DNA of 64,000 bases from a phage, in sequence record PZ452608.1; one strand, written 5' to 3'. The position numbers and the translations under genes are program-made. How positions within the stretch are numbered: position 1 is the first letter of the stretch; each line of letters starts with the position of its first letter. Under the pieces are notes generated by a model. That model made no database searches. It worked only from the letters and a program-made list of their open reading frames with translations, and was not told the origin of the DNA. Positions 1 through 55,873 of this stretch are shown piece by piece.

Positions 1-1602
1 ATGGACTTAAATGCTGTTAAGCAGAAGCGAGTGGAAGATGTTAGGAAAGTCCTAGCTGGAGAGTTGGGGCTTTCTGATGAAGTAAAAGAAATTATCAAAT
101 CATTCGGTAAAGACCCCTCTAAATTCCTTCCAACTCAAATTCTGACTTTATTAAGATACACACCAGACCAAGTTAGACTTATCTTCAAATTGATGACTGA
201 TAAGAATTATGTAGCCCCTCAGCCGGGTTCTCAAGAGGTCTTTTTAAATACTAATGCTGACTTGGTTCTCTATGGTGGTGCTGCTGGTGCTGGTAAAACT
301 GCTGCATTGTTAATGGATTCTTTAAGGTTTATTGAAGACCCTAACTATAATGCTGTATATTTCCGTCGAAATACAACACAGCTACAAGGTGGTTTATGGC
401 CTGCTGCAAAGAAACTATTTGGTAAGTTTGGTGGGGTTCCTCACGAGCAGAAAATGACCATCACATTCCCTTCTGGGGCAACTATCAAGTTTACCTACCT
501 AGAACTTGAAAAGCACGCTGAAGGTCATCAGGGTATTGAATACTCAGCTATTTACTTTGACGAAGGTACACACTTCTCTGCTTCACAGATTTCATACCTA
601 CAAACCCGTCTACGTTCTGGTGCTGAAGGTGATTCATACATGAAGATTTCCATGAACCCAGACAGAGACCACTTTATTTACGATTGGGTAGAGCCATTCT
701 TAGATGAAGAAGGCTATCCAGACCCTGAAAAATGTGGTCGTATTCGTTGGTATGTAATGAACGATGGTGTGATGGTTTCTGATTGGGAGAGAGACAAGAT
801 TCTTGAAATGTTCCCTCTTGAGATTCCTCAAACATACACCTTTATCTCTGGTACGATTGATGATAACCCAATCCTTGACTTCTTAGAGCCTAAGTACCGT
901 GGTAAGTTGGAAAACAACACCCCTGTAAACGTTGCAAGACTTCGTTTCGGTAACTGGAAGGCTCGTGCAGAAGGTTCAAACTATTGGCAAAGGCAATGGT
1001 GTGAGATTGTTGATTCACTCCCAGAAGATGTATTTGATGTTAGAGCATGGGACTTAGCAGCAACTTTACCATCTGAGATTAACCCTAATCCAGACTGGAC
1101 AGCAGGTGTTAAGATGGGTAAATCTAAAAAAGACGGTTGCTATTATATCATTGATGTAGTAAGATTTAGAGATAGACCCTCTGGAGTCGAAACACAAATT
1201 AATTTGACTGCTGAAAGTGACGGTAAGCGAACTGGTATTTTTATCCCTCAAGACCCAGGCGCTGCTGGTAAATCCTACGCAACATCCCTCATCAGGAAAC
1301 TTGCCGAGAAAGGTTATCGAGCAAGAGCCAAACCAACAAATAAAGATAAAGTTACCCGCTTTGCGGGATTTTCTGCTGCTTCTGAAGCTGGACTTGTAAA
1401 AGTCTTGAGAGGTAGTTGGAATGAAGCTTACTTTCAAGAACTTGAAGGCTTTTGTGGTGACGGCAAAACTAAAGATGACCAAGTGGATGCTACCAGTGAT
1501 GCTTTCAACAGTCTTAACGAAGTTAAATTATTCAAGCCACCATCAATGGGTGCTCACACAGATTTAGTGAGAGGAAACCCGTATGAGGGGCTTAGACGTT
1601 GA
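1..1602 (+). CDS. Terminase large subunit (TerL); true start may lie upstream of the window
   Basis: Walker A P-loop LVLYGGAAGAGKTAALL near N-terminus; acidic C-terminal nuclease-like half; directly followed by a portal-sized gene. Confidence 0.85.
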   Translation: MDLNAVKQKRVEDVRKVLAGELGLSDEVKEIIKSFGKDPSKFLPTQILTLLRYTPDQVRLIFKLMTDKNYVAPQPGSQEVFLNTNADLVLYGGAAGAGKTAALLMDSLRFIEDPNYNAVYFRRNTTQLQGGLWPAAKKLFGKFGGVPHEQKMTITFPSGATIKFTYLELEKHAEGHQGIEYSAIYFDEGTHFSASQISYLQTRLRSGAEGDSYMKISMNPDRDHFIYDWVEPFLDEEGYPDPEKCGRIRWYVMNDGVMVSDWERDKILEMFPLEIPQTYTFISGTIDDNPILDFLEPKYRGKLENNTPVNVARLRFGNWKARAEGSNYWQRQWCEIVDSLPEDVFDVRAWDLAATLPSEINPNPDWTAGVKMGKSKKDGCYYIIDVVRFRDRPSGVETQINLTAESDGKRTGIFIPQDPGAAGKSYATSLIRKLAEKGYRARAKPTNKDKVTRFAGFSAASEAGLVKVLRGSWNEAYFQELEGFCGDGKTKDDQVDATSDAFNSLNEVKLFKPPSMGAHTDLVRGNPYEGLRR

Positions 1603-1618
1603 TAGCTAGGTGAGAAGA

Positions 1619-3085
1619 ATGGCAGATATTACAGAAACACAAGAAAGCTTACCACCATTTAGAATGGGTGAAGTAGGTTCTTTGGGTCTGAAGGTTAAGA
1701 ATGGAAGAATCTATGAAGAACCTCGTCAGGCACTAAGGTTCCCTGAAAGTATTAAAACTTTCCAATTAATGATGCGTGACCCTGCTGTAGCAGCATCTGT
1801 AAATATTATTAAGATGTTTGTCAGAAAAGTCAACTGGAGATTCGTACCTCCAAAGGGAAAAGAGCAAGACCCTAAAATGCTTGAAAGAGCAGACTTCTTT
1901 AATTCTTTAATGGATGACATGGAGCATGATTGGGCAGATTTTATTAATTCTGTAATGTCATTCTGCACTTATGGGTTCTGTGTTAACGAGAAAGTTTATA
2001 AGAAGCGTCAGGGTAAAAAAGGAAAGTACCAGTCTAAATTTGATGATGGTCTAATTGGATGGGCTAAATTACCAATCAGAAACCAATCAACACTTGATAA
2101 GTGGTATTTTGACGAAGACTTTAGAAAAGTTACAGGTGTTAGGCAGAATCTGAGAAATGTTTCACATATTGCTGGAGCAATTAATCTCGGAGAAAGACCA
2201 CTAACAAGAAAACTTCCACGAGCTAAATTCATGCTGTTCAAGTATGACGATGAATATGGAAATCCAGAAGGTCGTTCACCATTACTTAATGCTTATGTAC
2301 CGTGGAAGTATAAAGTACAGATTGAAGAGTATGAAGCTGTTGGTGTTTCAAGAGACTTGGTAGGTATGCCAAAGATTGGTTTACCACCAGATTATCTGGA
2401 TGAAAATGCAGAACCTGAAAAGAAAGCTTTCGTACAATACTGCAAAACTGTTGTCAACGATATGATTGCTAATGACAGAGCAGGTTTAATCTGGCCTAGA
2501 TATATCGACCCAGATACTAAAGAGGATATTTTCGAGTTCTCATTAGTTTCTAGACAGGGTGCTAAAGCATACGATACAGGTTCTATTATTGACAGATATT
2601 CCAAGCAGATTATGATGGCATTTATGTCAGATGTTCTTGCTATGGGTCAGTCAAAATACGGTTCATTCTCTCTTGCAGATTCTAAGACAAGCTTATTAGC
2701 GATGTCAGTAGATATTCTGCTGAAGCAAATTAAGAACGTAATTAACCGTGACTTAGTTGCACAGACTTATGCTCTTAATATGTGGGATGATGAAGAACAT
2801 GTACAAATCACATATGATGATATCGAAACTCCAGACCTTGAAGCAATTGGTTCTTATATCCAGAAGACTGTTGCAGTAGGTGCTTTGGAAGTTGACAAAG
2901 AGCTATCTAACAAACTTAGAGAGCATATTGGTCTTCCTCCTGCTGATGAGTCTCAGCCAGTATCTGAAAAGCTTTCTCCAAATAGCCAAAGCCGTTCAGG
3001 AGATGGTTATAAGACCGCTGGAGAAGGTACTGCAAAGACACCTTCAGCGAAAGACCCAAGCACAGCAAATAAGGCAAATAAATAA
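1619..3085 (+). CDS. Portal protein (candidate)
   Basis: 489 aa ORF immediately after TerL; ATG at 1619 preceded by AGGTGA RBS (track start 1610 is GTG); acidic and Gly-rich C-terminus. Confidence 0.6.
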   Translation: MADITETQESLPPFRMGEVGSLGLKVKNGRIYEEPRQALRFPESIKTFQLMMRDPAVAASVNIIKMFVRKVNWRFVPPKGKEQDPKMLERADFFNSLMDDMEHDWADFINSVMSFCTYGFCVNEKVYKKRQGKKGKYQSKFDDGLIGWAKLPIRNQSTLDKWYFDEDFRKVTGVRQNLRNVSHIAGAINLGERPLTRKLPRAKFMLFKYDDEYGNPEGRSPLLNAYVPWKYKVQIEEYEAVGVSRDLVGMPKIGLPPDYLDENAEPEKKAFVQYCKTVVNDMIANDRAGLIWPRYIDPDTKEDIFEFSLVSRQGAKAYDTGSIIDRYSKQIMMAFMSDVLAMGQSKYGSFSLADSKTSLLAMSVDILLKQIKNVINRDLVAQTYALNMWDDEEHVQITYDDIETPDLEAIGSYIQKTVAVGALEVDKELSNKLREHIGLPPADESQPVSEKLSPNSQSRSGDGYKTAGEGTAKTPSAKDPSTANKANK

Positions 3086-3585
3086 TGGCTGAAGTTATCT
3101 CTATTTCAAATGCTACACGAGTGCATTCGTATAGAGGTGTTCTTATTATCACTGACAAATTATCTGTAGAGGCTGGTTCAAGGGTCAGCCTTTCAGGTTA
3201 TGTAAGTGATGGTGAAACCTCTGACGTTTTCACTATTTGCAGGTTACTTGATGCTCCAATGAGTGGAAAACCGTTTATTTCAGGAAATTGTAGTGAAATT
3301 GTTAAAATTCCATTTGACAGTTCATGCCTTTTGGGTGTAAAGTTATATAACTGCGAGAATAAACGTATCAATGTTAATAGCATTGAAGCCGCTTTCATTA
3401 CCCTCGACACTGCATTTCAATCTCCAATGACAGTTAATAAAGAAACAAACAGACTTGAATACATTTTTTCACAAAATGATTACAAAGTACTTGTCAAAGG
3501 CAAAGTATATGATATGATTGTAAATGTGGTAGATGAATCTGGTAACCATTCAACAGTCCTTAAACAAAAAGTAAGGTTTAATTAA
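3085..3585 (+). CDS. Hypothetical head-module protein
   Basis: ORF between portal and prohead protease, start codon abuts portal stop. Confidence 0.5.
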   Translation: MAEVISISNATRVHSYRGVLIITDKLSVEAGSRVSLSGYVSDGETSDVFTICRLLDAPMSGKPFISGNCSEIVKIPFDSSCLLGVKLYNCENKRINVNSIEAAFITLDTAFQSPMTVNKETNRLEYIFSQNDYKVLVKGKVYDMIVNVVDESGNHSTVLKQKVRFN

Positions 3586-3917
3586 TGGGAACATTAACTA
3601 TTGATGGTAAGAATAAAATCCTCGCCACGCTAACCCCAACGACTATTATTTTACACAATGTAGACCCAACGGCAGACCCTACAGCAAATAAGGTTACTCA
3701 GCCAGTGGCTATTTATTTTTCTGAACCGGATAACGGCTTAATTGCCTCAGAAGACACAGTTAATATTACTGTTCCAGCTTCTGCAACGGTCTCACACTAT
3801 AGCTTGTGGGATGCTAACGATAAATGCGTGGCAACTGGTGCTCTTAGCAAACCTCAATTCTTTGCTGAAGAAGGTATTTATGTTATCTCTTCAGTCTCTG
3901 TAGATTTAAACAAATAG
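3585..3917 (+). CDS. Hypothetical head-module protein
   Basis: ORF with ATG overlapping the upstream stop; same strand and operon as head genes. Confidence 0.5.
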   Translation: MGTLTIDGKNKILATLTPTTIILHNVDPTADPTANKVTQPVAIYFSEPDNGLIASEDTVNITVPASATVSHYSLWDANDKCVATGALSKPQFFAEEGIYVISSVSVDLNK

Positions 3918-3928
3918 GGTGAGTAAAA

Positions 3929-5275
3929 ATGAGTTCGAATATCTTCAGACTTGCTGATAGATTATTCAACCAACCTTTACTAGCCACTGAATCATTAGCT
4001 CACTCAGCAGCAACTTATGTGAATAACAGATTGCTGGGTGATGTCCAAGCAGCAGTAAACTTTGATAAACCCAAAGGTGAAGCAAGAAGTCTTTTAAAAG
4101 TAAAAGATGACATTGCTATTATCCCTATTATGGGTGGTTTAACTCATCGTATGACGTTCATTGATGCAATGTGTACAGGTGGATTAAGCTCTTATGAGGG
4201 TTTACGTAGAGGCTTTGACGAAGCTTTAGCAGATGAGTCAATCAAGACTATTGTTCTGCATATTGATTCTGGTGGTGGTGAAGCTTCAGGTTGCTTTGAA
4301 TTAGCACGTCACATTATGGCTTCAAGAGGCCAAAAGAAAATTATTGCTTATGTAGATGAGTTCGCTTGTTCCGCTGCATACGCTCTTGCATCTTCTGCTG
4401 AAGAAATTATTGCATCACCAGATGCAGATGTTGGTTCTATTGGTGTAATCATGGTTCATCAGGAATTAACTAAGGCATTTGAAAAGAATGGCGTAACAAT
4501 TAACGTCATCAAAGCTGGTGAGTTTAAAGGTATGGGTTCACCATTCCAAGCACTCTCAGAAGAAAGCAAAGAAAGACTTCAAAAGAGAATTAATGATACC
4601 TACGCAACCTTTACAGGTTTTGTAGCCGAATCTCGTAATCTCTCTGAAGAAGCTGTAAAGAATACTGAGGCGAATGTTTATTCTGCTCAGGAAGCTCTTG
4701 AACTTGGTTTAATTAACTCAATCATGTCTCAAGATGATTTCTTAAATTACTTACAAGGTTCTGAAGAGGCTCCTGTAAGTTTAAACGTTAACAATTCAGG
4801 TGAAGAAATGACTGAACAAGAAAAGCAAGAACTAGAGGCTTTGCGTCTTCAGGTTGCTCAAATGAAAGCCAAAGAACAGGAAGCTGCTTTGTCAGATTTG
4901 ACTAATAAGATTTCTGCTTCTGCTGAAGCTTTTGGATTTGATGCAAAAGAAGCTGCAACGACTATTTTAGGTGCTGGTCTTGATAACCCTCTGAGTGTTC
5001 TGTTTATGAATGCTATGGAAGGTGCTAACCAGAAACTTAATGAAACTATCGCGTCCCATGCTTCTGCAATGGAAGAAAAAGAATCAGAAATTACCAAGCT
5101 GAAAGAAACTGCTGGTGCTGTTCTTGAGCATTCTAATGCTATGGAAGAAATGGGTAATAACGGTGAAGCTGATTTGGTTGAAGAAGAAAAAGAACCAGCT
5201 AAGAATGCTTCCGAAGACACCGCTGAACAACGCAAACTGGCTCTCCAGAATGCTCTAAAATCTCTTATCAAATAA
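3929..5275 (+). CDS. Prohead protease of S49/ClpP fold (lambda gpC-like) fused to coiled-coil scaffold-like C-terminus
   Basis: Motifs IVLHIDSGGGEASGCFE and SAAYALASSAEEIIASPDADVGSIGV typical of S49 peptidases; C-terminal half Ala/Glu/Lys-rich coiled coil; sits before decoration and capsid genes. Confidence 0.75.
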   Translation: MSSNIFRLADRLFNQPLLATESLAHSAATYVNNRLLGDVQAAVNFDKPKGEARSLLKVKDDIAIIPIMGGLTHRMTFIDAMCTGGLSSYEGLRRGFDEALADESIKTIVLHIDSGGGEASGCFELARHIMASRGQKKIIAYVDEFACSAAYALASSAEEIIASPDADVGSIGVIMVHQELTKAFEKNGVTINVIKAGEFKGMGSPFQALSEESKERLQKRINDTYATFTGFVAESRNLSEEAVKNTEANVYSAQEALELGLINSIMSQDDFLNYLQGSEEAPVSLNVNNSGEEMTEQEKQELEALRLQVAQMKAKEQEAALSDLTNKISASAEAFGFDAKEAATTILGAGLDNPLSVLFMNAMEGANQKLNETIASHASAMEEKESEITKLKETAGAVLEHSNAMEEMGNNGEADLVEEEKEPAKNASEDTAEQRKLALQNALKSLIK

Positions 5276-5286
5276 GGAACACAATA

Positions 5287-5664
5287 ATGGCATATCAAGG
5301 TTTTACTAAGTTAGGTAACAGAGAACCTCTGAATGATATCATTCTTTGGGAACAGATTACCCCAACAGGCCACTCTCGTAAAGAGTACACTCCAGTTGCT
5401 TCAACAGAATACCGTGTAGGTGAAGTTCTGAAAGCAGATGGTACTAAGGTACAAGCTGGAGAAGAAGCCCAAGCAGACTCTGTATGTATCGTTAATTTCT
5501 ACGCAGACCTGCAACTGTCTTATCATGGTCAGTTGAAAGTGGTAGGTATCCACCGTGATGCAGAACTGAAAGACCTGCTTACTCTTGAAGCGAGCGTTGA
5601 TGCTGCTGCCGTCAAGACAGCTCTGGCTGCTAAAGGTATTGATTTCGTACCAACTGGCCTGTAA
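5287..5664 (+). CDS. Head decoration protein (gpD-like, candidate)
   Basis: 125 aa ORF directly upstream of the major capsid gene, lambda-like order; host-optimal codon usage (ctg, cgt, ggt). Confidence 0.5.
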   Translation: MAYQGFTKLGNREPLNDIILWEQITPTGHSRKEYTPVASTEYRVGEVLKADGTKVQAGEEAQADSVCIVNFYADLQLSYHGQLKVVGIHRDAELKDLLTLEASVDAAAVKTALAAKGIDFVPTGL

Positions 5665-5697
5665 TAACAATAATAAGACATTCTGGAGAATTTTACA

Positions 5698-6804
5698 ATG
5701 TTGACTAATTCTGAAAAAAGCAGATTTTTCCTTGCTGACCTGACTGGTGAAGTCCAGTCTATCCCAAATACTTATGGGTATATTTCCAACTTAGGTCTGT
5801 TCCGTTCAGCACCAATCACCCAAACTACTTTCCTTATGGACTTGACTGATTGGGATGTTAGCTTGCTTGATGCGGTAGACCGCGATAGCCGTAAAGCAGA
5901 GACTAGCGCACCTGAGCGTGTTCGTCAAATCAGCTTCCCAATGATGTACTTCAAAGAAGTTGAAAGCATTACTCCTGATGAGATTCAGGGTGTACGTCAG
6001 CCAGGAACTGCAAACGAACTGACTACTGAAGCTGTAGTACGTGCTAAGAAGCTGATGAAGATTCGTACCAAGTTCGATATTACTCGTGAGTTCCTGTTTA
6101 TGCAAGCTCTGAAGGGTAAAGTTGTTGATGCTCGTGGTACTCTGTATGCTGACCTGTACAAGCAGTTCGACGTTGAGAAGAAGACTGTTTACTTCGACCT
6201 TGACAACCCTAATGCTGACATTGATGCTGCTATTGAAGAACTGCGTATGCACATGGAAGACGAAGCTAAGACTGGCACTGTAATCAACGGTGAAGAAATT
6301 CACGTAGTTGTTGACCGCTTATTCTTCAGCAAACTGGTTAAACACCCTAAGATTCGTGACGCTTATCTTGCACAGCAGACTCCGCTGGCTTGGCAACAGA
6401 TTACTGGTTCTCTGAGAACTGGTGGTACTGACGGCGTTCAGGCTCACATGAACACTTTCTACTACGGTGGTGTTAAGTTTGTCCAGTACAACGGTAAGTT
6501 CAAAGACAAGCGTGGTAAGGTTCACACTCTGGTGAGCATTGATAGTGTAGCAGCAACTGTTGGTGTAGGTCATGCTTTCCCTAACGTTTCTATGCTGGGT
6601 GAAGCTAACAACATCTTCGAAGTGGCATATGGTCCATGCCCTAAGATGGGTTATGCAAATACACTTGGTCAGGAACTGTACGTATTCGAATACGAAAAAG
6701 ACCGTGACGAAGGTATTGACTTTGAAGCTCACTCTTACATGCTGCCATACTGCACACGTCCTCAGTTGCTGGTAGACGTTCGTTCTGACGCTAAACCAGA
6801 CTAA
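5698..6804 (+). CDS. Major capsid protein (lambda gpE-like, candidate)
   Basis: 368 aa ORF after decoration gene, strong RBS GGAGAA, markedly host-optimal codon usage consistent with very high expression. Confidence 0.7.
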   Translation: MLTNSEKSRFFLADLTGEVQSIPNTYGYISNLGLFRSAPITQTTFLMDLTDWDVSLLDAVDRDSRKAETSAPERVRQISFPMMYFKEVESITPDEIQGVRQPGTANELTTEAVVRAKKLMKIRTKFDITREFLFMQALKGKVVDARGTLYADLYKQFDVEKKTVYFDLDNPNADIDAAIEELRMHMEDEAKTGTVINGEEIHVVVDRLFFSKLVKHPKIRDAYLAQQTPLAWQQITGSLRTGGTDGVQAHMNTFYYGGVKFVQYNGKFKDKRGKVHTLVSIDSVAATVGVGHAFPNVSMLGEANNIFEVAYGPCPKMGYANTLGQELYVFEYEKDRDEGIDFEAHSYMLPYCTRPQLLVDVRSDAKPD

Positions 6805-6825
6805 TATTCTTAAGGAGGGTTATGA

Positions 6826-7275
6826 ATGTGCTATACAGGCGACCCAGCCAATAACCCTCTTGATAGAGTAAGAATCCTCTGCACAGACACCAATAATGAT
6901 GAAATTCTTATTGAACAGTCTGTGCTAGAGTGGTTCTATCTAGAATCTGGAAAGGATGAAAAGAAAGCAGCCATCAAAGCTCTTAAATATTTACTCTTTC
7001 AAGTAGCCAAGATGGGAGATGAGAAGGTTGGTGGTGTTTATTTACGTAACTCTTCCAGATTCAAATCTCTGAAAGCTGTTTATGACGACCTTGTTAAAAG
7101 CTCTGTTTCAGGACTACCCTATGCAGGTGGTATTAATCAGTGCGACATTGATATGCGTCGTCAAAATCCTTGCTCTGTCAAGAAATACACAGAATATGGT
7201 GATGCTGCCAGATACGAAGGCAGAGATTACTGCAACCGTGTTAATGGCGTATTTATTATCGAGCGAGATGAATAA
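6826..7275 (+). CDS. Hypothetical head-tail joining protein
   Basis: ORF with AAGGAGGG RBS between capsid and tail genes. Confidence 0.5.
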   Translation: MCYTGDPANNPLDRVRILCTDTNNDEILIEQSVLEWFYLESGKDEKKAAIKALKYLLFQVAKMGDEKVGGVYLRNSSRFKSLKAVYDDLVKSSVSGLPYAGGINQCDIDMRRQNPCSVKKYTEYGDAARYEGRDYCNRVNGVFIIERDE

Positions 7276-7757
7276 TGGTTAAAAGGGTTATTCACCCCGC
7301 TAGAGCAAAATTAGTCGGGGCTATGAAGAACTTGCAAACGGCTAATGCTCAAGTTGGGTATTTTCAAGAACAAGGTCAACATAGCTCTGGTTTTTCTTAT
7401 CCTGCTTTAATGTATTTACAAGAAGTTATTGGGGTTCCTTCAGCTTCTGGTAAAGTATATCGTAGGTTGTTTGAAATCACTATGATGCTAAACAGACAGA
7501 CCTTGTTAGAGCAGACTAAGAAGAATCTCTATAAGCAACTTAGCAGTCTCAACACAGACCCTTCAAATACTTTAGAAGCATTTGCAAAGAATGCTCAGAA
7601 GGCAATTAAAAGGGGTTTTGGTAATTCTGCTATCCTCCCTCCTAACGCACCTTCCACAGTCAAGAAAAAAGGCTTTAACGCACCTCTTGTTGAGACAGGT
7701 GACTTAAGAGATAACCTTGCTTATAAAATTTCTACTAAGAAGGGTATTAAGAAATGA
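7275..7757 (+). CDS. Hypothetical head-tail joining protein
   Basis: ORF in the neck region, start overlaps upstream stop. Confidence 0.5.
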   Translation: MVKRVIHPARAKLVGAMKNLQTANAQVGYFQEQGQHSSGFSYPALMYLQEVIGVPSASGKVYRRLFEITMMLNRQTLLEQTKKNLYKQLSSLNTDPSNTLEAFAKNAQKAIKRGFGNSAILPPNAPSTVKKKGFNAPLVETGDLRDNLAYKISTKKGIKK

Positions 7758-11258: not shown

Positions 11259-16642
<5,384 letters not shown>

Positions 16643-40089: not shown

Positions 40090-41136
40090 ATGGAGAAGTA
40101 CACATTAACAAAGCTTCCCGATTCAGTTACACATGTCTTTATTGACTCTGACAGCATTGCCTATAAAGGTGCTTGTGTAGTTGAGAAAGCAAAGTATAAA
40201 TACGTTAATAAACTCACAGCAGAAGAATCTGAACCATTTGATAATGCGAAAGATGCTGCAAGATGGTTAGCAGACCAGAGAATCCTTGTGGAAGAGCTTG
40301 GCCTGACATTTGAGGAAGATGAATGGGAAAGACAAACTTGGAAAGAAGCTAAGAGTGAAAAAGAAGCTATCATGGCTACTCAACAGGTGCTTCAGGAATG
40401 GCTTAAGATTGTTGGTAAAGAAAGAACTTGGGTAGGTTATTTAACAGAGAAGGGTGTGCATAAACATAAAGACATTAAAGGTCTTGAGCACCAATATCAA
40501 GGTAATCGTAAAGATGCTGTCACACCAACACACTTAGTCGCTTGTCGTGAATACCTTTTATCCAGACCAGAGTTCAAGCTCTTAAAGGGGGGCTTCGAAG
40601 CCGATTCCATCGTAATTGCTAAAGCTGAAAAGATGGGTAAGAAGGCTGCTCTTATGAGTATTGACAAAGACCTTCGACAAGCTGAAGGGACTTATTGTAT
40701 TGATATGACTTATGAAAAGTCACCACTAATTTTTATTGCTGATAATAATGTTGGTGATATCTGGGATTGCCCTATCAAATCAAAACCAAAAGCTGCAAAA
40801 ACAGTTGGTGTAGGTTTTAAATTTTTGTGTTATCAGGCTGTTGCTGGAGATAATGCAGACAACTACTTCGGCCTTAAAGGTGCTGGTAAAGTAGCTGTGA
40901 TGAATGCTTTAGATGGTAAAGAGACCTATAAAGAGTGTCTTGATGCTATCTATGAACTCTATGCTAAAAAAGAGTCTTACACCTATGTGTCATGGGATGG
41001 ACAGACTGTTACCAAAACACCATTAGAGTTAATGGAACAGCATTTCTTCCTAGCTTATCAAGAGCGAAATAAATCAGATATTTTTTCATTTGAAAAGTAT
41101 GGTTGGACTCCAAATGTTGACTCAGCAGATACTTAA
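40090..41136 (+). CDS. 5-prime to 3-prime exonuclease / flap endonuclease
   Basis: H3TH-like motif AVAGDNADNYFGLKGAGKVAV; N-terminal acidic cluster VFIDSDSIAY. Confidence 0.7.
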   Translation: MEKYTLTKLPDSVTHVFIDSDSIAYKGACVVEKAKYKYVNKLTAEESEPFDNAKDAARWLADQRILVEELGLTFEEDEWERQTWKEAKSEKEAIMATQQVLQEWLKIVGKERTWVGYLTEKGVHKHKDIKGLEHQYQGNRKDAVTPTHLVACREYLLSRPEFKLLKGGFEADSIVIAKAEKMGKKAALMSIDKDLRQAEGTYCIDMTYEKSPLIFIADNNVGDIWDCPIKSKPKAAKTVGVGFKFLCYQAVAGDNADNYFGLKGAGKVAVMNALDGKETYKECLDAIYELYAKKESYTYVSWDGQTVTKTPLELMEQHFFLAYQERNKSDIFSFEKYGWTPNVDSADT

Positions 41137-41614
41137 AGAATATCTACACTATGACCCCGAAACAGGGGTCTTTACGTGGATAAAGAAAGCAGCTAACAGA
41201 ACAGTTATAGGTTCCATTGCGGGTACACCACATAAGCGGGGCTATATTAGGATAAAAATTAAAAGAAAATCCTATATGGCTCATGATTTAGCAATCCTGT
41301 ACACAGATGGTTTCCTGCCTAACAGGGTAGACCACCGCAACGGTATTACTAATGATAATCGGAGATTAAATCTAAGGGTTTGCACACAAGCTGAAAACTC
41401 TTGGAACAGAAGAACGCACTCCAACAACACATCTGGAGTTAAGGGTGTATCTTTCTATAAGGCTAACCAAAAATGGAAGGCCAGAATTATGACACACGGG
41501 GTATCTCATTTTCTGGGGTATTTTGACAGTATTGAAGATGCCAAAGATGCAGTCACAAAGAAAAGAGAAGAACTACATAAAGAGTTTTCAAATCACGGAG
41601 AAGCTTATGAATGA
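41090..41614 (+). CDS. HNH homing endonuclease with AP2 DNA-binding domain
   Basis: VDHRNGITNDNRRLNLRVCTQAENSWN (HNH) and GVKGVSFYKANQKWKARI (AP2-like); start codon uncertain, overlaps the 3-prime end of the exonuclease gene. Confidence 0.7.
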   Translation: MKSMVGLQMLTQQILKEYLHYDPETGVFTWIKKAANRTVIGSIAGTPHKRGYIRIKIKRKSYMAHDLAILYTDGFLPNRVDHRNGITNDNRRLNLRVCTQAENSWNRRTHSNNTSGVKGVSFYKANQKWKARIMTHGVSHFLGYFDSIEDAKDAVTKKREELHKEFSNHGEAYE

Positions 41615-42108
41615 AGATTAAAGGATTTGGCAATTGTCCCACCTACGGCCATTGGGTATCTTTGTGTGGGGAAGTTGACCCCACTAAACATTTTGGTTTT
41701 GTCTATTTAGTACACTGTAAGAAAACCGGACAATATTATATCGGAAAGAAACAGCTTAATAGTGTGACTAAAAGAAAAGTTGCTGGCAAGACTCGGAAGA
41801 AGGTAGTCACTAAGGAGAGTGATTGGATGACTTATGAAACTTCTTCTGAGTATATTAAAAAAGATATTGAGAGCTTTGGAAAAGAATTTTTTGACTTTTA
41901 CATTATTCAGACCTACTACACAAAAGGTGGCCTAGTCTATGGTGAAGCAAACCTTCAACATAAATTCGATGTAATGACAAAAAGGATTGACTCTAAGCTC
42001 AGACTCTTCTACAATGCCAATATTGCAGCAATTAAGTTTATTACTAAAGAAACTTATGAAGATGCTGAAAAAAGAATCCATAAGGTAATGAAAGCAAACT
42101 GTGCTTGA
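41611..42108 (+). CDS. GIY-YIG-like nuclease domain protein (candidate)
   Basis: FGFVYLVHCKKTGQYYIGKK with GIY/YIG-like spacing. Confidence 0.4.
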   Translation: MKIKGFGNCPTYGHWVSLCGEVDPTKHFGFVYLVHCKKTGQYYIGKKQLNSVTKRKVAGKTRKKVVTKESDWMTYETSSEYIKKDIESFGKEFFDFYIIQTYYTKGGLVYGEANLQHKFDVMTKRIDSKLRLFYNANIAAIKFITKETYEDAEKRIHKVMKANCA

Positions 42109-52290: not shown

Positions 52291-52321
52291 AAGGGGACTG
52301 TAAAGGTTCCCTTTTTATTTT
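52291..52321 (+). terminator. Intrinsic terminator
   Basis: AAGGGGAC-tgtaaag-GTTCCCTT followed by TTTTATTTT. Confidence 0.6.
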
Positions 52322-52330
52322 GGAGGTAAA

Positions 52331-52846
52331 ATGTATCTGTCAAACCTGAAACGTTCGGTTGCAATGTCAGTTCTAAGACTCAGCTTTGATGAGCGTCAAG
52401 AGTTTATAGACTCCCACAAATATGACCCTTCAAATTCTAATCACATGGTTCTTTGGAATCGTGGTAACTTACGTGAAAGAGCACTTGTCCGTTATTACCC
52501 ACACTACACAATAGATAACCTGTATGAATGGTGTGTTGTGAAGAACACCATTGCAACACTGAACAATCTTTGCAGGTATACGGGTAAGCAAATATTTACA
52601 TTAGGTCATCACAAACCTGTTACAAAAGGTGGTGAACATCACTGTGCAAACTGGTTTATCCAAACTAAAGCTGATAACCAGAAGCAAGGAGATAGCCTCC
52701 TAAGTATCCCTAAGATGACCTATGAAGAGCAAGAGAAATATATCAAAAATAATATGCCAGATGTGCTTGACAACAACTATACAGATTTGGCAATATCTCT
52801 CCTGTTGAAGTTCGAGACAGTTTATAGGGCAACTTATAATGACTAA
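52331..52846 (+). CDS. HNH endonuclease domain protein
   Basis: LGHHKPVTKGGEHHCANWFIQTKADNQKQG. Confidence 0.5.
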   Translation: MYLSNLKRSVAMSVLRLSFDERQEFIDSHKYDPSNSNHMVLWNRGNLRERALVRYYPHYTIDNLYEWCVVKNTIATLNNLCRYTGKQIFTLGHHKPVTKGGEHHCANWFIQTKADNQKQGDSLLSIPKMTYEEQEKYIKNNMPDVLDNNYTDLAISLLLKFETVYRATYND

Positions 52847-53117
52847 AGAAAAGTGGGAGATTTTACCATTAGTCAGTGAAGGAGGTAATGGTTGTGAAAT
52901 GTACATGATACGTGGTCATGTTCCAGAGCCAATTGCACTTGAGATGGTAAACAACTTTACAGATGGTTCTTACAAAGACTTAGGCGAACCAACTGTCAAG
53001 CAACAATGGGTTAAACCTGTACCAGACAGCACAGGTAACTGTAGTGTACTTTATCACGTTGTAGACCCTGCAAAATGCAAATCTGCAATGGCAGTAACAA
53101 ACGTAACTTTTGATTGA
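52839..53117 (+). CDS. Hypothetical protein
   Basis: 92 aa ORF overlapping HNH gene end. Confidence 0.4.
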   Translation: MTKEKWEILPLVSEGGNGCEMYMIRGHVPEPIALEMVNNFTDGSYKDLGEPTVKQQWVKPVPDSTGNCSVLYHVVDPAKCKSAMAVTNVTFD

Positions 53118-53128
53118 GAGAGAAAACT

Positions 53129-54010
53129 ATGAAAACATCTATCCGTGTTACAGTTCATTCACCAACTAAAGGGACTCATGAAGAAGAGTTTAACATCGTC
53201 CAATTCCCTTCTGGTGAGATTGGTGGACACTTTTCGCCAGAGTTTGTTGATTTTACTGCTTATGCAGCATCATCCATCAACAATGTGATTATGATTGTAA
53301 AAGGTTATGACAAGGACACATTGTTTGCTGTGGCACTTGCTAAAGAAGCAATTGATGATTTAATTCCTCATGATTATGCTTTAAAGACTGTCATCTTTTA
53401 CTACTTACCAAATGCACGATATGACCGTCACATGTTTAAAGGTGACGCAGCAGCTTTAAAGGTTTTTGCTAAACAGATTAATGCAATGGGATTTGGCGCA
53501 GTCTGTGCAGTTGACCCTCACAGCTATGTACCAGATAACCTGTTTAACTGCTTCCAGAGTATTCCTCAAAAGGAGATTGCAGTCCACTATGCAAATGACC
53601 CACTGGTTGATTACTTAGTAGCCCCAGATGCAGGTGCTGCTAAGAAGGTTGCAGAGACCGCTAAAGAGGTGGATAAACCATATATCACAATGTCTAAGGT
53701 GCGTAACCTTAAGACTGGTGAAATTACTGGTATGCGAATCCTTGATGATGTTGATTTGACAGATAAAACCGTCATGATTCTGGATGATATCTGTGATGGT
53801 GGTCGAACCTTCATAGAAGCAGCTAAGCATCTCCGTGAAGCAGGTGCAAAACGTGTGGAACTCTATGTAACACATGGTATCTTCTCTAAAGATGTTGAAA
53901 ACCTTCTTGACAATGGTATTGACCATATCTACACTACAAACTCTTTAGGGGAAGCTAAAGACCGTGGCTTAACACATTATGGTCAAGTTACTGTAGCAAA
54001 CCTTGATTGA
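53129..54010 (+). CDS. Ribose-phosphate pyrophosphokinase family enzyme (Prs-like; possibly ADPR-PP synthetase type)
   Basis: PRTase signature VMILDDICDGGRTFIEAAKHLREAGAKRV and LVAPDAGAAKKVAE; divergent N-terminal half; ATG at 53129 (track start 53114 is TTG). Confidence 0.75.
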   Translation: MKTSIRVTVHSPTKGTHEEEFNIVQFPSGEIGGHFSPEFVDFTAYAASSINNVIMIVKGYDKDTLFAVALAKEAIDDLIPHDYALKTVIFYYLPNARYDRHMFKGDAAALKVFAKQINAMGFGAVCAVDPHSYVPDNLFNCFQSIPQKEIAVHYANDPLVDYLVAPDAGAAKKVAETAKEVDKPYITMSKVRNLKTGEITGMRILDDVDLTDKTVMILDDICDGGRTFIEAAKHLREAGAKRVELYVTHGIFSKDVENLLDNGIDHIYTTNSLGEAKDRGLTHYGQVTVANLD

Positions 54011-54018
54011 AACTTTAT

Positions 54019-54041
54019 AGGGGCTTAAAAGCCCCATTTTG
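54019..54041 (+). terminator. Terminator-like hairpin (interrupted U-tract)
   Basis: GGGGCT-TAAA-AGCCCC followed by ATTTTG. Confidence 0.4.
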
Positions 54042-54055
54042 AGAGAGATTAAAAG

Positions 54056-55837
54056 ATGACTAAATCACTTTATGCAGTACCAGCAGGTTTAAATGCAGAT
54101 GCTTACAAATCTGGTCATGTTTACCAGTATCCTAGTGCAACAGAATACTTGATGTTCAACCTGACACCACGTAGTGATAAATGGTTTAACAGCCCTTTAG
54201 CAATTGACGGTGTAGTGGCTTTTGGTATTCAACGTTTTGTTAAAGATTACTTGATAGACCACTGGAACGCCACTTTCTTTGAACGTGATAAAAAAGAAGC
54301 CATTGATGAAATCTTAGAAGTCATGAATGGTGTTCTGGGTAAAGATGCTATCGGTCGAGAGCATTGGGAAGCACTTCACGACTTAGGTTATCTACCAGTT
54401 GAAGTATACGCTGTAGAAGAAGGTACAGTTGTCCCTATGCGTGTCCCAATGATTGTCTTCCAGAACACTGTTTCAGGTTTCCATTGGGTAGCGGGATATC
54501 TGGAAGATGCTTTCTCTGCTGAGATTTGGAAGGCTTGTACCATTGCAACTATTGCATTGCATTATAAACGCATCTGTAAGAAGTGGGCTGACCTTACTTG
54601 CGACAATGACTTACATTTACCTTATCAGTGCCATGACTTTGCTATGCGTGGTATGTCCGGCTTTACTGATGACGCATTTAACGCTGTAGGCCACTTAACC
54701 AGCTTTAAAGGGACTGATAGCTTCCCTGCTGTATATACAGCTAAACGCATCTACGGACAGTCTTACCCAGTCTCTGATATTGGTGGTTCTGTACCAGCCA
54801 CTGAACACTCTGTAATGTGTGCAAACATTGCTTGGGAAGGTGGTAATGAGTTGGTTGAAGAAGAAAGACGCTTTAAAGGTGAGTTGCAAACCTTCCGTCG
54901 CTTCTTAACAGAAACTTATCCAACTGGTATTGCAAGTATTGTTTCAGATACTTATAACTTCTGGAGAACTGTGTCAGAAATCTTACCAGCACTCCGTAAA
55001 GAAATTATGGAACGTGACGGTAAACTGGTGATTCGTCCTGATTCTGGAGACCCTGTACATATTGTCACAGGTTATAAAGCAATCCACTTAGAATGTGCTA
55101 AGAAGGCTTATTACGAGCACCTAAGCAAGCTGGAAGCCAGTGACACAATGCTGAATGCTGTTCTGAACATGAAGCTTGAAAATATCAGCTATGGTATTGC
55201 TGGATGGCTACTGTCAGAAGGCTACGAAATGGTTGTTGACAGAGAAGACTTTGAAGTTGCTGACACAGTGATGTTGAAAAATGCTTATATGGTTGGTTCT
55301 GCAAACGTTGTAACACGTCCTGTAGCTGAGATTGATGGAGCTATTAAGACTCTGTATAACATCTTTGGAGGAACTATTAACTCTAAAGGTTTTAAGGTAC
55401 TGGATGAGCACATTGGACTTATCTATGGCGACTCTATCACGTTGGAACGTGCAAACGAAATCCTGAAGCGTCTGTATGAAATGGGGTTTGCAAGCTCTAA
55501 CGTGGTGTTTGGTGTAGGCTCTTACACTTACCAGTACATGACTCGTGACACCTTTGCATTTGCTGTCAAAGCAACTCTTGCAAGCATTGGTGGCAAAGAG
55601 ATTATGCTTGCAAAAGACCCTAAAACAGATAGTGGTGTTAAGAAATCTGCCTTTGGTGGTGTAGCACCTATGTGGGATGGTGAGAATTTGAAAGCTGTAG
55701 ATGGCTATGGATTCCAGAGCTTTGCAGATGCACTTGAACATCCAGCTTGTGCTTTACGTTTAGTCTTTAGCGACTCTGAGCAGTACGGTTACACAACTCT
55801 TGGTGATATTCGAAATAATATTGACAAGCAGCTTTAA
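54056..55837 (+). CDS. Nicotinamide phosphoribosyltransferase family enzyme (NAMPT/NadV-like)
   Basis: N-terminal NADAYKSGHVYQYP resembles the NAMPT DSYK...QYP region; 593 aa. Confidence 0.75.
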   Translation: MTKSLYAVPAGLNADAYKSGHVYQYPSATEYLMFNLTPRSDKWFNSPLAIDGVVAFGIQRFVKDYLIDHWNATFFERDKKEAIDEILEVMNGVLGKDAIGREHWEALHDLGYLPVEVYAVEEGTVVPMRVPMIVFQNTVSGFHWVAGYLEDAFSAEIWKACTIATIALHYKRICKKWADLTCDNDLHLPYQCHDFAMRGMSGFTDDAFNAVGHLTSFKGTDSFPAVYTAKRIYGQSYPVSDIGGSVPATEHSVMCANIAWEGGNELVEEERRFKGELQTFRRFLTETYPTGIASIVSDTYNFWRTVSEILPALRKEIMERDGKLVIRPDSGDPVHIVTGYKAIHLECAKKAYYEHLSKLEASDTMLNAVLNMKLENISYGIAGWLLSEGYEMVVDREDFEVADTVMLKNAYMVGSANVVTRPVAEIDGAIKTLYNIFGGTINSKGFKVLDEHIGLIYGDSITLERANEILKRLYEMGFASSNVVFGVGSYTYQYMTRDTFAFAVKATLASIGGKEIMLAKDPKTDSGVKKSAFGGVAPMWDGENLKAVDGYGFQSFADALEHPACALRLVFSDSEQYGYTTLGDIRNNIDKQL

Positions 55838-55849
55838 AAGTATATGATA

Positions 55850-55873
55850 AGAGGCTCCTACGGGAGCCTTTTT
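55850..55873 (+). terminator. Intrinsic terminator
   Basis: AGGCTCC-TACG-GGAGCCT followed by TTTTT. Confidence 0.7.

Follow-up and report, generated by a model that had tools for sequence, protein, structure and literature searches.

We analysed a 64,000-nt window of phage DNA, which over the stretch 53129–55837 is 100% identical to Escherichia phage wV8 (Felixounavirus). The list of open reading frames contains here a Prs-like and a NAMPT-like gene in the same orientation, with exactly the limits claimed in an earlier sequence-only reading (Table 1). The first frame, adps, offers alternative starts at 53114 (TTG) and 53129 (ATG), its length of 293 aa being counted from the ATG; the second, namat, begins 45 nt downstream of it on the same strand, with no listed ORF between the two. 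The pair closes a run of genes for nucleotide metabolism (nrdA, nrdB, nrdD, nrdG), and the gene order of the locus is that of genes 77–85 in the congeneric phage Bas63.

Table 1 Features of the adps-namat locus (window coordinates).
Feature	Position	Strand	Description or basis
Two upstream ORFs	52331..53117	+	171 aa (HNH-like) and 92 aa; tightly packed or overlapping
adps (ADPR-PP synthetase, predicted)	53129..54010	+	293 aa, Prs-like; wV8 gene 135; ORF and family matches
Alternative adps allele relative to Bas63	53129..53650	+	Codons 1–174, about 520 nt; drop in nucleotide identity
Adps Lys190 codon	53696..53698	+	Catalytic lysine of the beta-hairpin; aligned with ICP1 Lys185 and SPbetaL1 Lys162
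Adps PP-loop region	53783..53809	+	D219-D220-I-C-D-G-G-R-T227; aligned with ICP1 D212-D213-I-C-D-G-A-A-S220
GC-rich hairpin in the 45-nt adps-namat spacer	54020..54035	+	−12.6 kcal/mol, z = −3.07; followed by only four T (U in RNA)
namat (nicotinamide ADP-ribose transferase, predicted)	54056..55837	+	593 aa, NAMPT-like; wV8 gene 136, annotated 'nadV'
Namat selectivity-clamp loop (SCL)	54170..54205	+	Residues 39–50, RSDKWFNSPLAI, with K42-W43; alignment with SPbetaL1
Namat His251 codon	54806..54808	+	Catalytic; aligned with SPbetaL1 His245, PATEHSVM motif
Inserted Namat subdomain	55073..55336	+	Residues 340–427, 88 aa; gap relative to 9W5X
Namat selectivity-clamp helix (SCH) motif	55517..55549	+	G488-S-Y-T-Y-Q-Y-M-T-R-D498; adenine-clamp motif
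Intrinsic terminator closing the operon	55849..55872	+	10-bp stem, then T run; −17.2 kcal/mol, z = −3.54

Each gene had been credited with a terminator of its own. This held for namat, where the strong terminator is identical in Bas63, and was not borne out for adps, where the terminator scan did not call the hairpin in the spacer; Bas63 keeps the stem of that hairpin and has a single change in its loop.

Profile searches assigned the adps product, Adps, to the Prs-like family (Pribosyltran, 8e-12; Pribosyl_synth, 5e-10; TIGR01251, 7.5e-36). TIGR01251, a broad subfamily model, was the sole Prs model whose threshold was passed (123.6 vs 113 bits), whereas all equivalog-level Prs models failed, with a best score of 105 vs 296 bits and a shortfall of about 190 bits or more throughout. 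The divergence of the N-terminal half noticed earlier was confirmed: no Pfam N-terminal Prs domain was detected and the NCBIfam alignments begin only at about residue 87. Adps was 31% identical to the validated proteins of ICP1 and SPbetaL1 (31–37% across validated Adps proteins), compared with 24% for the Prs of E. coli, and in the alignment its C-terminus falls short of that of the E. coli enzyme. Adps proteins are distinguished from housekeeping Prs by a clade of their own and by a lost C-terminal regulatory module. Failed equivalog models, identities and C-terminus together set wV8 Adps apart from housekeeping Prs, an assignment that we rejected on the equivalog models and the lack of a Pfam N-terminal match. 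The wV8 sequence is entry EU877232_00148 in Table S1 of Osterman et al., flagged 'Namat within 10 genes: Yes', and 97% of the Adps clade have a namat gene close by.

We then compared the residues of Adps with those of Vibrio phage ICP1 Adps, a Prs-like two-domain enzyme whose apo, substrate-bound and product-bound structures have been published (PMC13586617). Both proteins have the beta-hairpin catalytic lysine, the DDICDG stretch of the PP loop and the acceptor Arg, His and Asp. F26, R97, H131, D167, D219 and D220 of wV8 correspond to F18, R87, H121, D161, D212 and D213 of ICP1, and C222-D223-G224 to C215-D216-G217. The PP-loop region is the ribose- and ATP-phosphate-binding loop of ICP1 Adps, and mutation of the catalytic lysine in either ICP1 or SPbetaL1 Adps abolished activity. 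The two enzymes differ in that Met102 of wV8 takes the place of the adenine-contacting Phe92 of ICP1, that G225-R226 replaces the two alanines of the ICP1 loop (GGRT vs GAAS), and that the N-terminal 60 residues align poorly; both substitutions are the same in Bas63. Formation of ADPR-PP from ADP-ribose and ATP, without PRPP synthesis, has been shown for SPbetaL1 and ICP1 Adps, and wV8 Adps is, as part of the reading of the pair as a whole, very probably an ADPR-PP synthetase as well.

Similarly, the namat product matched NAPRTase (6.5e-35) and NF006629 (1.4e-140), and it is the protein (EU877232_00149) labelled 'Adps-associated' in Osterman Table S2. Its AF2 model (pLDDT 93.6) had the SPbetaL1 'Namat' crystal chains 9W5X/9W5W as best structural matches, with a TM score of 0.95 for the predicted wV8 fold and 47.6% sequence identity over 458 residues. 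In the alignment with SPbetaL1, D15, Y17, F195, R198, D221, H251, R327 (SPbetaL1 R306) and D329 are conserved, and His251 was invariant across 38 homologues. Both clamp elements are present. In the SCL, SPbetaL1 Arg40 aligns with K42, which is followed by W43, and the loop of Bas63 is identical; the NAR paper, with Bas63 as its example, assigns adenine stacking to the following residue whenever the aligned position is a Lys. K42-W43 provides the residue expected at the third position (Arg, Lys or Tyr) together with a stacking residue. The SCH motif is common to wV8 and SPbetaL1 (GSFTYQYNTRD), whereas Xanthomonas Nampt (GGALLQKVDRD, 7YQO) and H. ducreyi NadV (GAQTYQRNTRD, 9KE8) do not have it, the cellular Nampts having non-aromatic residues at the third and seventh SCH positions. 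SPbetaL1 Namat has been shown to prefer ADPR-PP over PRPP and to form NAD+ directly. Overall, SPbetaL1 shares the two-gene order with wV8 and differs in sequence (31% identity for Adps, 48% for Namat) and in length, its 491-residue Namat being without the 88- and 22-residue inserts of wV8.

The closest experimentally studied relative is Bas63 (JohannRWettstein; MZ501086), which shares genus, gene order, spacer hairpin and terminator with wV8 and differs in having, immediately past the namat terminator, an additional gene of 114 aa (bas63_0081). Full-length, gap-free alignments gave 228/293 identical residues (78%) for Adps against Bas63_0079 and 582/593 (98%) for Namat against Bas63_0080, and Bas63 Namat has the same two insertions and the same two clamp elements. 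Genes 79–80 of Bas63 are the founding experimental example of NARP1 (NAD+ reconstitution pathway 1), described by Osterman et al. in the founding study (bioRxiv 10.1101/2024.02.11.579819), and the supplementary Adps/Namat homologue tables of the same work catalogue the wV8 genes EU877232_00148 and EU877232_00149. The wV8 pair is not new: NARP1 in wV8 is already known as a published counter-defence operon. In that study, deletion of genes 79–80 sensitised the phage to SIR2-HerA, lowering plaque numbers on cells with this system about 20-fold. The operon restored NAD+ levels, counter-defence did not require host NadR or PncC and worked where the host was without both pncC and nadR, and ADPR-PP built up only if defence system and operon were present together (bioRxiv 10.1101/2024.02.11.579819).

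These comparisons make it highly probable that the wV8 gene pair is a NARP1 operon composed of Adps and Namat. From orthology, synteny and the conserved catalytic and specificity residues, we infer the activities of the wV8 proteins themselves. The literature on relatives supplies genetics and in-cell ADPR-PP for Bas63 and enzymology for SPbetaL1, ICP1 and others, and structures have been published for SPbetaL1 Namat as well as ICP1 Adps; the enzymology of the wV8/Bas63 orthologue group rests on homologues of 31–48% identity because the Bas63 proteins were not purified. The pathway would be triggered during infection by an NADase effector (SIR2-HerA/Nezha, type I Thoeris TIR, DSR1/DSR2, SEFIR or similar) that cleaves NAD+ to ADP-ribose and nicotinamide. 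Adps would then move the beta,gamma-pyrophosphate of ATP to the 1'' hydroxyl of the terminal ribose of ADP-ribose, yielding ADPR-PP and AMP, and Namat would exchange the pyrophosphate of ADPR-PP for nicotinamide to give NAD+ directly, a step that would require neither an NMN intermediate nor an NMN adenylyltransferase. Overall, one ATP would be spent to turn what the immune reaction had released back into NAD+, and the phage could replicate. By analogy with Bas63, we infer that the wV8 pair would counter NAD+-depleting defence without host NMN salvage.

A second use of the same genes is compatible with NARP1 as their main function: when NAD+ is not being cleaved, Namat could convert PRPP and nicotinamide to NMN and raise phage NAD+ through host NMN routes. 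With PRPP, Namat is still about half as active in vitro as human Nampt, and the pair adjoins the ribonucleotide reductase genes, a location that would also suit a plain metabolic role. We nevertheless regard this use as rather improbable, given that only NAD+ was formed when PRPP and ADPR-PP were offered together, and that in Bas63 ADPR-PP appeared only with the defence system; the available text on Bas63 mentions no defence-free phenotype.

Canonical salvage, in which a true PRPP synthetase and a true NadV/Nampt would make NMN and host NadR or PncC would finish NAD+, is the function implied by the older GenBank/RefSeq names ('ribose-phosphate pyrophosphokinase'; 'nadV, part of the NAD+ salvage pathway'). 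The cellular enzymes, E. coli Prs (b1207) and the Nampts (9KE8, 7YQO, human NAMPT), share folds and core chemistry with the wV8 pair, namely pyrophosphoryl transfer from ATP followed by displacement of pyrophosphate by nicotinamide. In favour of canonical salvage, the TIGR01251 and NF006629 cut-offs are passed, and Namat homologues retain in vitro the ability to form NMN from PRPP, so that wV8 Namat may have some canonical NMN-making activity. Against these points stand the independence of the Bas63 operon from pncC and nadR together with its ADPR-PP product, the lack of product from SPbetaL1 Adps in a Prs-type control reaction, the clamp motif that true Nampts are without, and the wide margin by which each equivalog-level Prs model was missed. 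Canonical salvage as the function of the pair is accordingly very improbable. The sequence-only reading had leaned towards an ADPR-PP synthetase plus a NAMPT-like transferase, and the published function of the NARP1 operon supports that leaning; its statement that the matter was undecidable from sequence alone was too cautious. The choice between salvage and NAD+ rebuilding can largely be made from sequence, because the Namat clamp motif differs from that of true Nampts and the Prs-like protein fails the equivalog models.

The difference between wV8 and Bas63 Adps is concentrated in the 5' part of the gene. Nucleotide identity was 69% in 53129–53650, 91–96% elsewhere in the locus and 97% immediately upstream; at the amino-acid level, residues 1–174 were 66.7% identical and the last 119 residues (175–293) 94.1% identical. 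The borders of this segment are sharp and recombination-like, and Felix O1 Adps represents a third recombinant form. It is least probable of all that the wV8-type N-terminal allele has a shifted acceptor (e.g. ADPR-1''-phosphate or a 2'-phosphorylated form) that would make the operon functionally unlike that of Bas63: the extent and sharp borders of the exchange, and the adenine contacts that the N-terminal domain provides in ICP1 Adps, would suit such a shift, but the mapped acceptor residues F26, R97, H131 and D167 are all the same in both alleles, phages that cope with ADPR-1P use a separate Macro-domain phosphatase, and the nearly identical Namat would have to accept the altered product.

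Furthermore, Namat carries an 88-aa insert that is missing from SPbetaL1 Namat, ICP1 Namat and cellular Nampt. The segment between G339 and G428 comprises 88 residues in wV8, 12–16 in short forms and 32–94 in other long forms. The insert forms a confident alpha/beta unit in the full-length predicted model; folded alone without an alignment, it reached a pLDDT of 59.9, too low for a fold search, and a Pfam search with residues 340–427 returned no match. A second, smaller insert occupies residues 254–275 (22 residues). We found no discussion of the 88-aa subdomain, the recombinant 5' segment of adps or the spacer hairpin in the cited NARP1 papers. There is a small chance that these lineage-specific features, namely the two Namat inserts and the recombining Adps N-terminal alleles, reflect a further layer of the NAD+ arms race that has not been described so far; they might help the enzymes to evade host proteins able to bind or sense NARP1 components, or hold the Adps hexamer against the Namat dimer and so channel the labile ADPR-PP.

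We also investigated whether other NAD-related genes accompany the pair. The absence of an NMN adenylyltransferase gene noted earlier for the window was borne out and extended: [H/T]xGH- and ISSTxxR-type motifs were absent in six frames from the window and from record positions 1–45000, which together cover all of wV8, and the wV8 record annotation lists no NMNAT. NARP2 of Vibrio phage KVP40 (Nampt/NadV plus the bifunctional NMNAT NatV) likewise sets a NAMPT-family enzyme and nicotinamide against NAD+ depletion, but requires PRPP and an NMN adenylyltransferase, whereas the NAMPT-like protein of wV8 has the ADPR-PP clamp; membership in NARP2 was rejected on the genome-wide lack of an NMNAT signature and the 'Adps-associated' label. 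NARP3 (PnuC-like plus NadR-like) was rejected in the same manner, no NadR-type signature being present, and a 'MazG-like' gene considered as part of the NAD chemistry gave only a PRA-PH/MazG-type match and was likewise rejected as a component of the system. NARP1-AP (Adps, the Macro-domain phosphatase Adpp and Namat; Vibrio phage Gary) and the RyDEP-extended NARP1 of mycobacteriophage DyoEdafos contain the same two core enzymes; the eight ORFs flanking the wV8 pair include no Macro-domain (macrodomain family) or RyR-domain (PF02026) match, and we rejected both memberships since the operon has neither the Macro phosphatase nor the RyR glycosidase. Judged by this gene content, wV8-type phages carry a plain NARP1, without phosphatase or glycosidase add-on and without an NMNAT. 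A plain NARP1 would be predicted to overcome ADPR-producing NADases, and aRES-type NAD+ cleavage to ADPR-1P would still block wV8.

The two ORFs upstream of adps are preceded directly by a terminator-like hairpin (52291–52313) and may share the adps-namat transcript. They belong to PHROG families without assigned function, with a weak HNH match. Erwinia phage phiEa21-4 has a counterpart of the 171-aa ORF (45% identity) two genes ahead of its adps, and the small ORF lying between them there showed no homology to the 92-aa ORF of wV8. With only the 171-aa ORF kept, we rejected the idea that the upstream ORFs travel with NARP1; the synteny of the 171-aa ORF is not evidence of function and may be common descent, because wV8 and phiEa21-4 belong to the same subfamily.

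NARP1 was found in 4.3% of the phage genomes surveyed in the founding study (bioRxiv 10.1101/2024.02.11.579819). It accounts for the survival of a large share of phages under SIR2, TIR, DSR and SEFIR type immunity, and is relevant to the choice or engineering of therapeutic phages. For the wV8 window the value of these results is mainly corrective, as the database entries for wV8, like those for hundreds of Felix O1-like phages, continue to name the genes prs and nadV. Similarly, the RefSeq 'NAD synthetase' (41611–42108), examined as a candidate NAD enzyme, proved to be a mislabelled homing endonuclease of the SegE-type GIY-YIG family.

Exactly at the limits proposed by the sequence-only reading (53129–55837), the ORF list places two co-oriented genes, the Prs-like adps and the NAMPT-like namat, whose coordinates are collected in the table together with those of associated features. 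The stretch is 100% identical to genes 135 and 136 of Escherichia phage wV8 (EU877232 / NC_012749); the window corresponds to positions 32001–88487 of the wV8 record joined to 1–7514, and a similarity search found most of the stretch in about 235 Felix O1-like phage records. Upstream of the adps ATG at 53129 lies an in-frame TTG (53114).

Coordinates of the adps–namat locus and its associated features (window positions)
Feature	Position	Strand	Details
adps	53129–54010	+	ATG start, 293 aa
GC hairpin	54020–54035		in the 45-nt adps–namat spacer; −12.6 kcal/mol, z = −3.1
namat	54056–55837	+	593 aa
Small Namat insertion site	54815–54880		residues 254–275; 22 aa vs 8 in short forms
Large Namat insertion	55073–55336		residues 340–427; 88 aa vs 12–16 in short forms
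Intrinsic terminator, strong	55849–55872		3' of namat

The pair is a known system, NAD+ reconstitution pathway 1 (NARP1), and the wV8 genes are already listed among its members. Comparison with the founding experimental example, the operon of the congeneric E. coli phage Bas63, revealed the same gene order, beginning with the ribonucleotide reductase genes and continuing through rIIA and rIIB, and full-length, ungapped alignments of both proteins (Namat vs Bas63_0080, 582/593 identical, 98%; Adps vs Bas63_0079, 228/293, 78%). According to the preprint on this pathway (bioRxiv 10.1101/2024.02.11.579819), loss of the operon lowers the plaque count of Bas63 about 20-fold on SIR2-HerA cells, wild-type Bas63 restores NAD+ levels, host pncC and nadR are not needed for the operon effect, and ADPR-PP is seen only when the defence system and the operon are present together. 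Its supplementary tables hold both wV8 genes by accession: EU877232_00148 is the exact window Adps sequence, flagged "Namat within 10 genes: Yes", and EU877232_00149 is entered as an "Adps-associated" Namat homologue; the wV8 pair is therefore already catalogued as NARP1.

In wV8, the operon would follow the route established for homologues. A NADase effector would split NAD+ into ADP-ribose and nicotinamide. Adps would then move the β,γ-pyrophosphate of ATP onto the terminal ribose of ADP-ribose, yielding ADPR-PP and AMP, and Namat would swap the pyrophosphate of ADPR-PP for nicotinamide, giving NAD+ directly. Cleavage by aRES to ADPR-1''-phosphate should defeat this two-gene form.

Pfam matched the namat product with NAPRTase and NAMPT_N, and NCBIfam with NF006629 (1.4e-140). 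Its best sequence matches were the crystal structures of SPbetaL1 phage Namat (9W5X and 9W5W, 1.6e-127), which were also the best fold matches of the AlphaFold2 model (pLDDT 93.6; TM 0.95), with H. ducreyi NadV and human NAMPT scoring lower. Aligning the published contacts placed D15, Y17, F195, R198, D221, A248, D329, G458 and D459 in the window Namat, along with the catalytic H251 and with R327, equivalent to SPbetaL1 R306. According to the Namat structure paper, a selectivity clamp distinguishes Namat from Nampt. The wV8 protein carries the clamp motif GSYTYQYMTRD (G488–D498), whereas the same site reads GGALLQKVDRD in Xanthomonas Nampt and GAQTYQRNTRD in H. ducreyi NadV; its clamp loop element, K42-W43, is the arrangement that paper describes for Bas63 Namat. 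A residual PRPP activity of Namat may possibly contribute on the side, which is compatible with direct NAD+ rebuilding as the main explanation.

In length, the window Namat exceeds the SPbetaL1 and ICP1 phage enzymes by about 100 residues, the difference lying at two insertion sites. The large insert is a compact α/β unit modelled with high confidence within the full-length structure, and had no match in Pfam. At this same site, inserts of 32–94 residues that differ in sequence are present in other phage Namat homologues; the Namat structure paper includes Bas63 Namat in an alignment, and a keyword search of its main text found no mention of the insert.

Published structures of ICP1 Adps (PMC13586617) place the catalytic Lys185 on a β-hairpin, define an acceptor groove of F18, R87, F92, H121, D161, D212 and D213, and show a remodelled PP loop. 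In a six-sequence alignment, K190 of the window Adps aligned with ICP1 K185 and SPbetaL1 K162, and F26, R97, H131, D167, D219, D220 and C222-D223-G224 were present; the sole differing mapped residue was ICP1 F92, replaced by Met102 here and likewise in Bas63. The first 522 nt of adps (53129–53650) are only 69% identical to Bas63, compared with 91–96% for the rest of the locus and 97% for the 29 nt immediately upstream (53100–53128), so that the two sequences begin to diverge a few codons after the adps start. A third mosaic is seen in Felix O1 Adps, whose start is of the Bas63 type and whose middle is of the wV8 type. The sharp 5' divergence and the Felix O1 mosaic indicate that adps recombines within the genus, and the pattern of 5' segments points to recurrent events inside the gene. 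It is unlikely that the wV8-type allele has an altered acceptor specificity, because both alleles share every mapped acceptor residue.

The divergent N-terminal half that had been noted for the Prs-like gene was borne out by profile searches. Pfam matches were confined to the C-terminal Prs domains of phosphoribosyltransferase type; in NCBIfam the broad subfamily model TIGR01251 was passed (123.6 vs 113 bits), but the product came no closer than about 190 bits to the cut-off of any equivalog-level Prs model. Identity was 31–37% to validated or listed Adps and 24% to E. coli Prs, which is longer at the C-terminus. The originally preferred reading, an ADPR-PP synthetase plus a NAMPT-like transferase rebuilding NAD+, is correct, and is supported by Bas63 orthology, the Namat clamp motif and these failed Prs models. 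The canonical alternative, Prs and NadV feeding host NadR or PncC, follows current naming in public records but is contradicted by the same motif and models and by the Bas63 genetics and metabolite data, and is very improbable.

The absence of an NMNAT gene from the window, claimed earlier, extends to the whole wV8 genome: no (H/T)xGH or ISSTxxR signature occurred in any frame of the window plus record positions 1–45000, and the wV8 annotation lists no NMNAT. The RefSeq "NAD synthetase" (41611–42108, 165 aa) is a SegE-type GIY-YIG endonuclease (PF19835, 9.4e-28), a misannotation that could falsely imply extra NAD chemistry in wV8; it lies directly 3' of an endonuclease-like ORF (41090–41614, RefSeq "HNH endonuclease"). 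NARP2 (Nampt plus NMNAT) and NARP3 (PnuC-like plus NadR-like) are thus excluded. Phosphatase- and glycosidase-extended forms of NARP1 were likewise rejected, as adps and namat have no gene between them and none of the eight ORFs on their flanks matched a Macro or RyR domain. The wV8 operon is plain NARP1.

Layouts vary among other phages. Directly after the namat terminator, Bas63 and several relatives have an additional gene of 114 aa, bas63_0081 (11509–11853 of the Bas63 locus sequence; no Pfam match), which wV8 lacks at ~55880; similarity-search matches there split into two pieces spanning about 3351 nt. Escherichia phage 4MG (3456–6525 of its locus sequence) has adps, a 177-aa ORF and namat, the layout of phosphatase-extended NARP1, with no Pfam domain at E < 0.01 in the middle ORF. 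In some phages, such as Shigella phage Ag3 (FJ373894), Adps and Namat are fused in one polypeptide, and phrog_12872, the PHROG profile of this fused family, matches both window proteins.

The proposal that each gene has its own terminator held for namat but not for adps, where the terminator scan did not call the intergenic hairpin, which has only four U after the stem. Conserved in Bas63, this hairpin may act as a partial terminator or stabilise the RNA, and could lower read-through into namat. Neither it, the insert nor the adps mosaic changes the NARP1 assignment, and what novelty remains lies only in the lineage-specific Namat insert and the adps allele mosaic.

Upstream, at 52291–53117, a terminator-like hairpin (52291–52313) precedes two closely spaced ORFs abutting adps, of 171 aa with an HNH-like motif and of 92 aa, which may share the adps transcript. 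Erwinia phage phiEa21-4 has a counterpart of the 171-aa ORF in the same position (45% identity) and an unrelated small ORF. Within the region, the strongest sigma-70-like match (55821–55848; TTGACA, 16-nt spacer, TATGAT; 11/12) spans the end of namat just 5' of its terminator and probably reflects chance.
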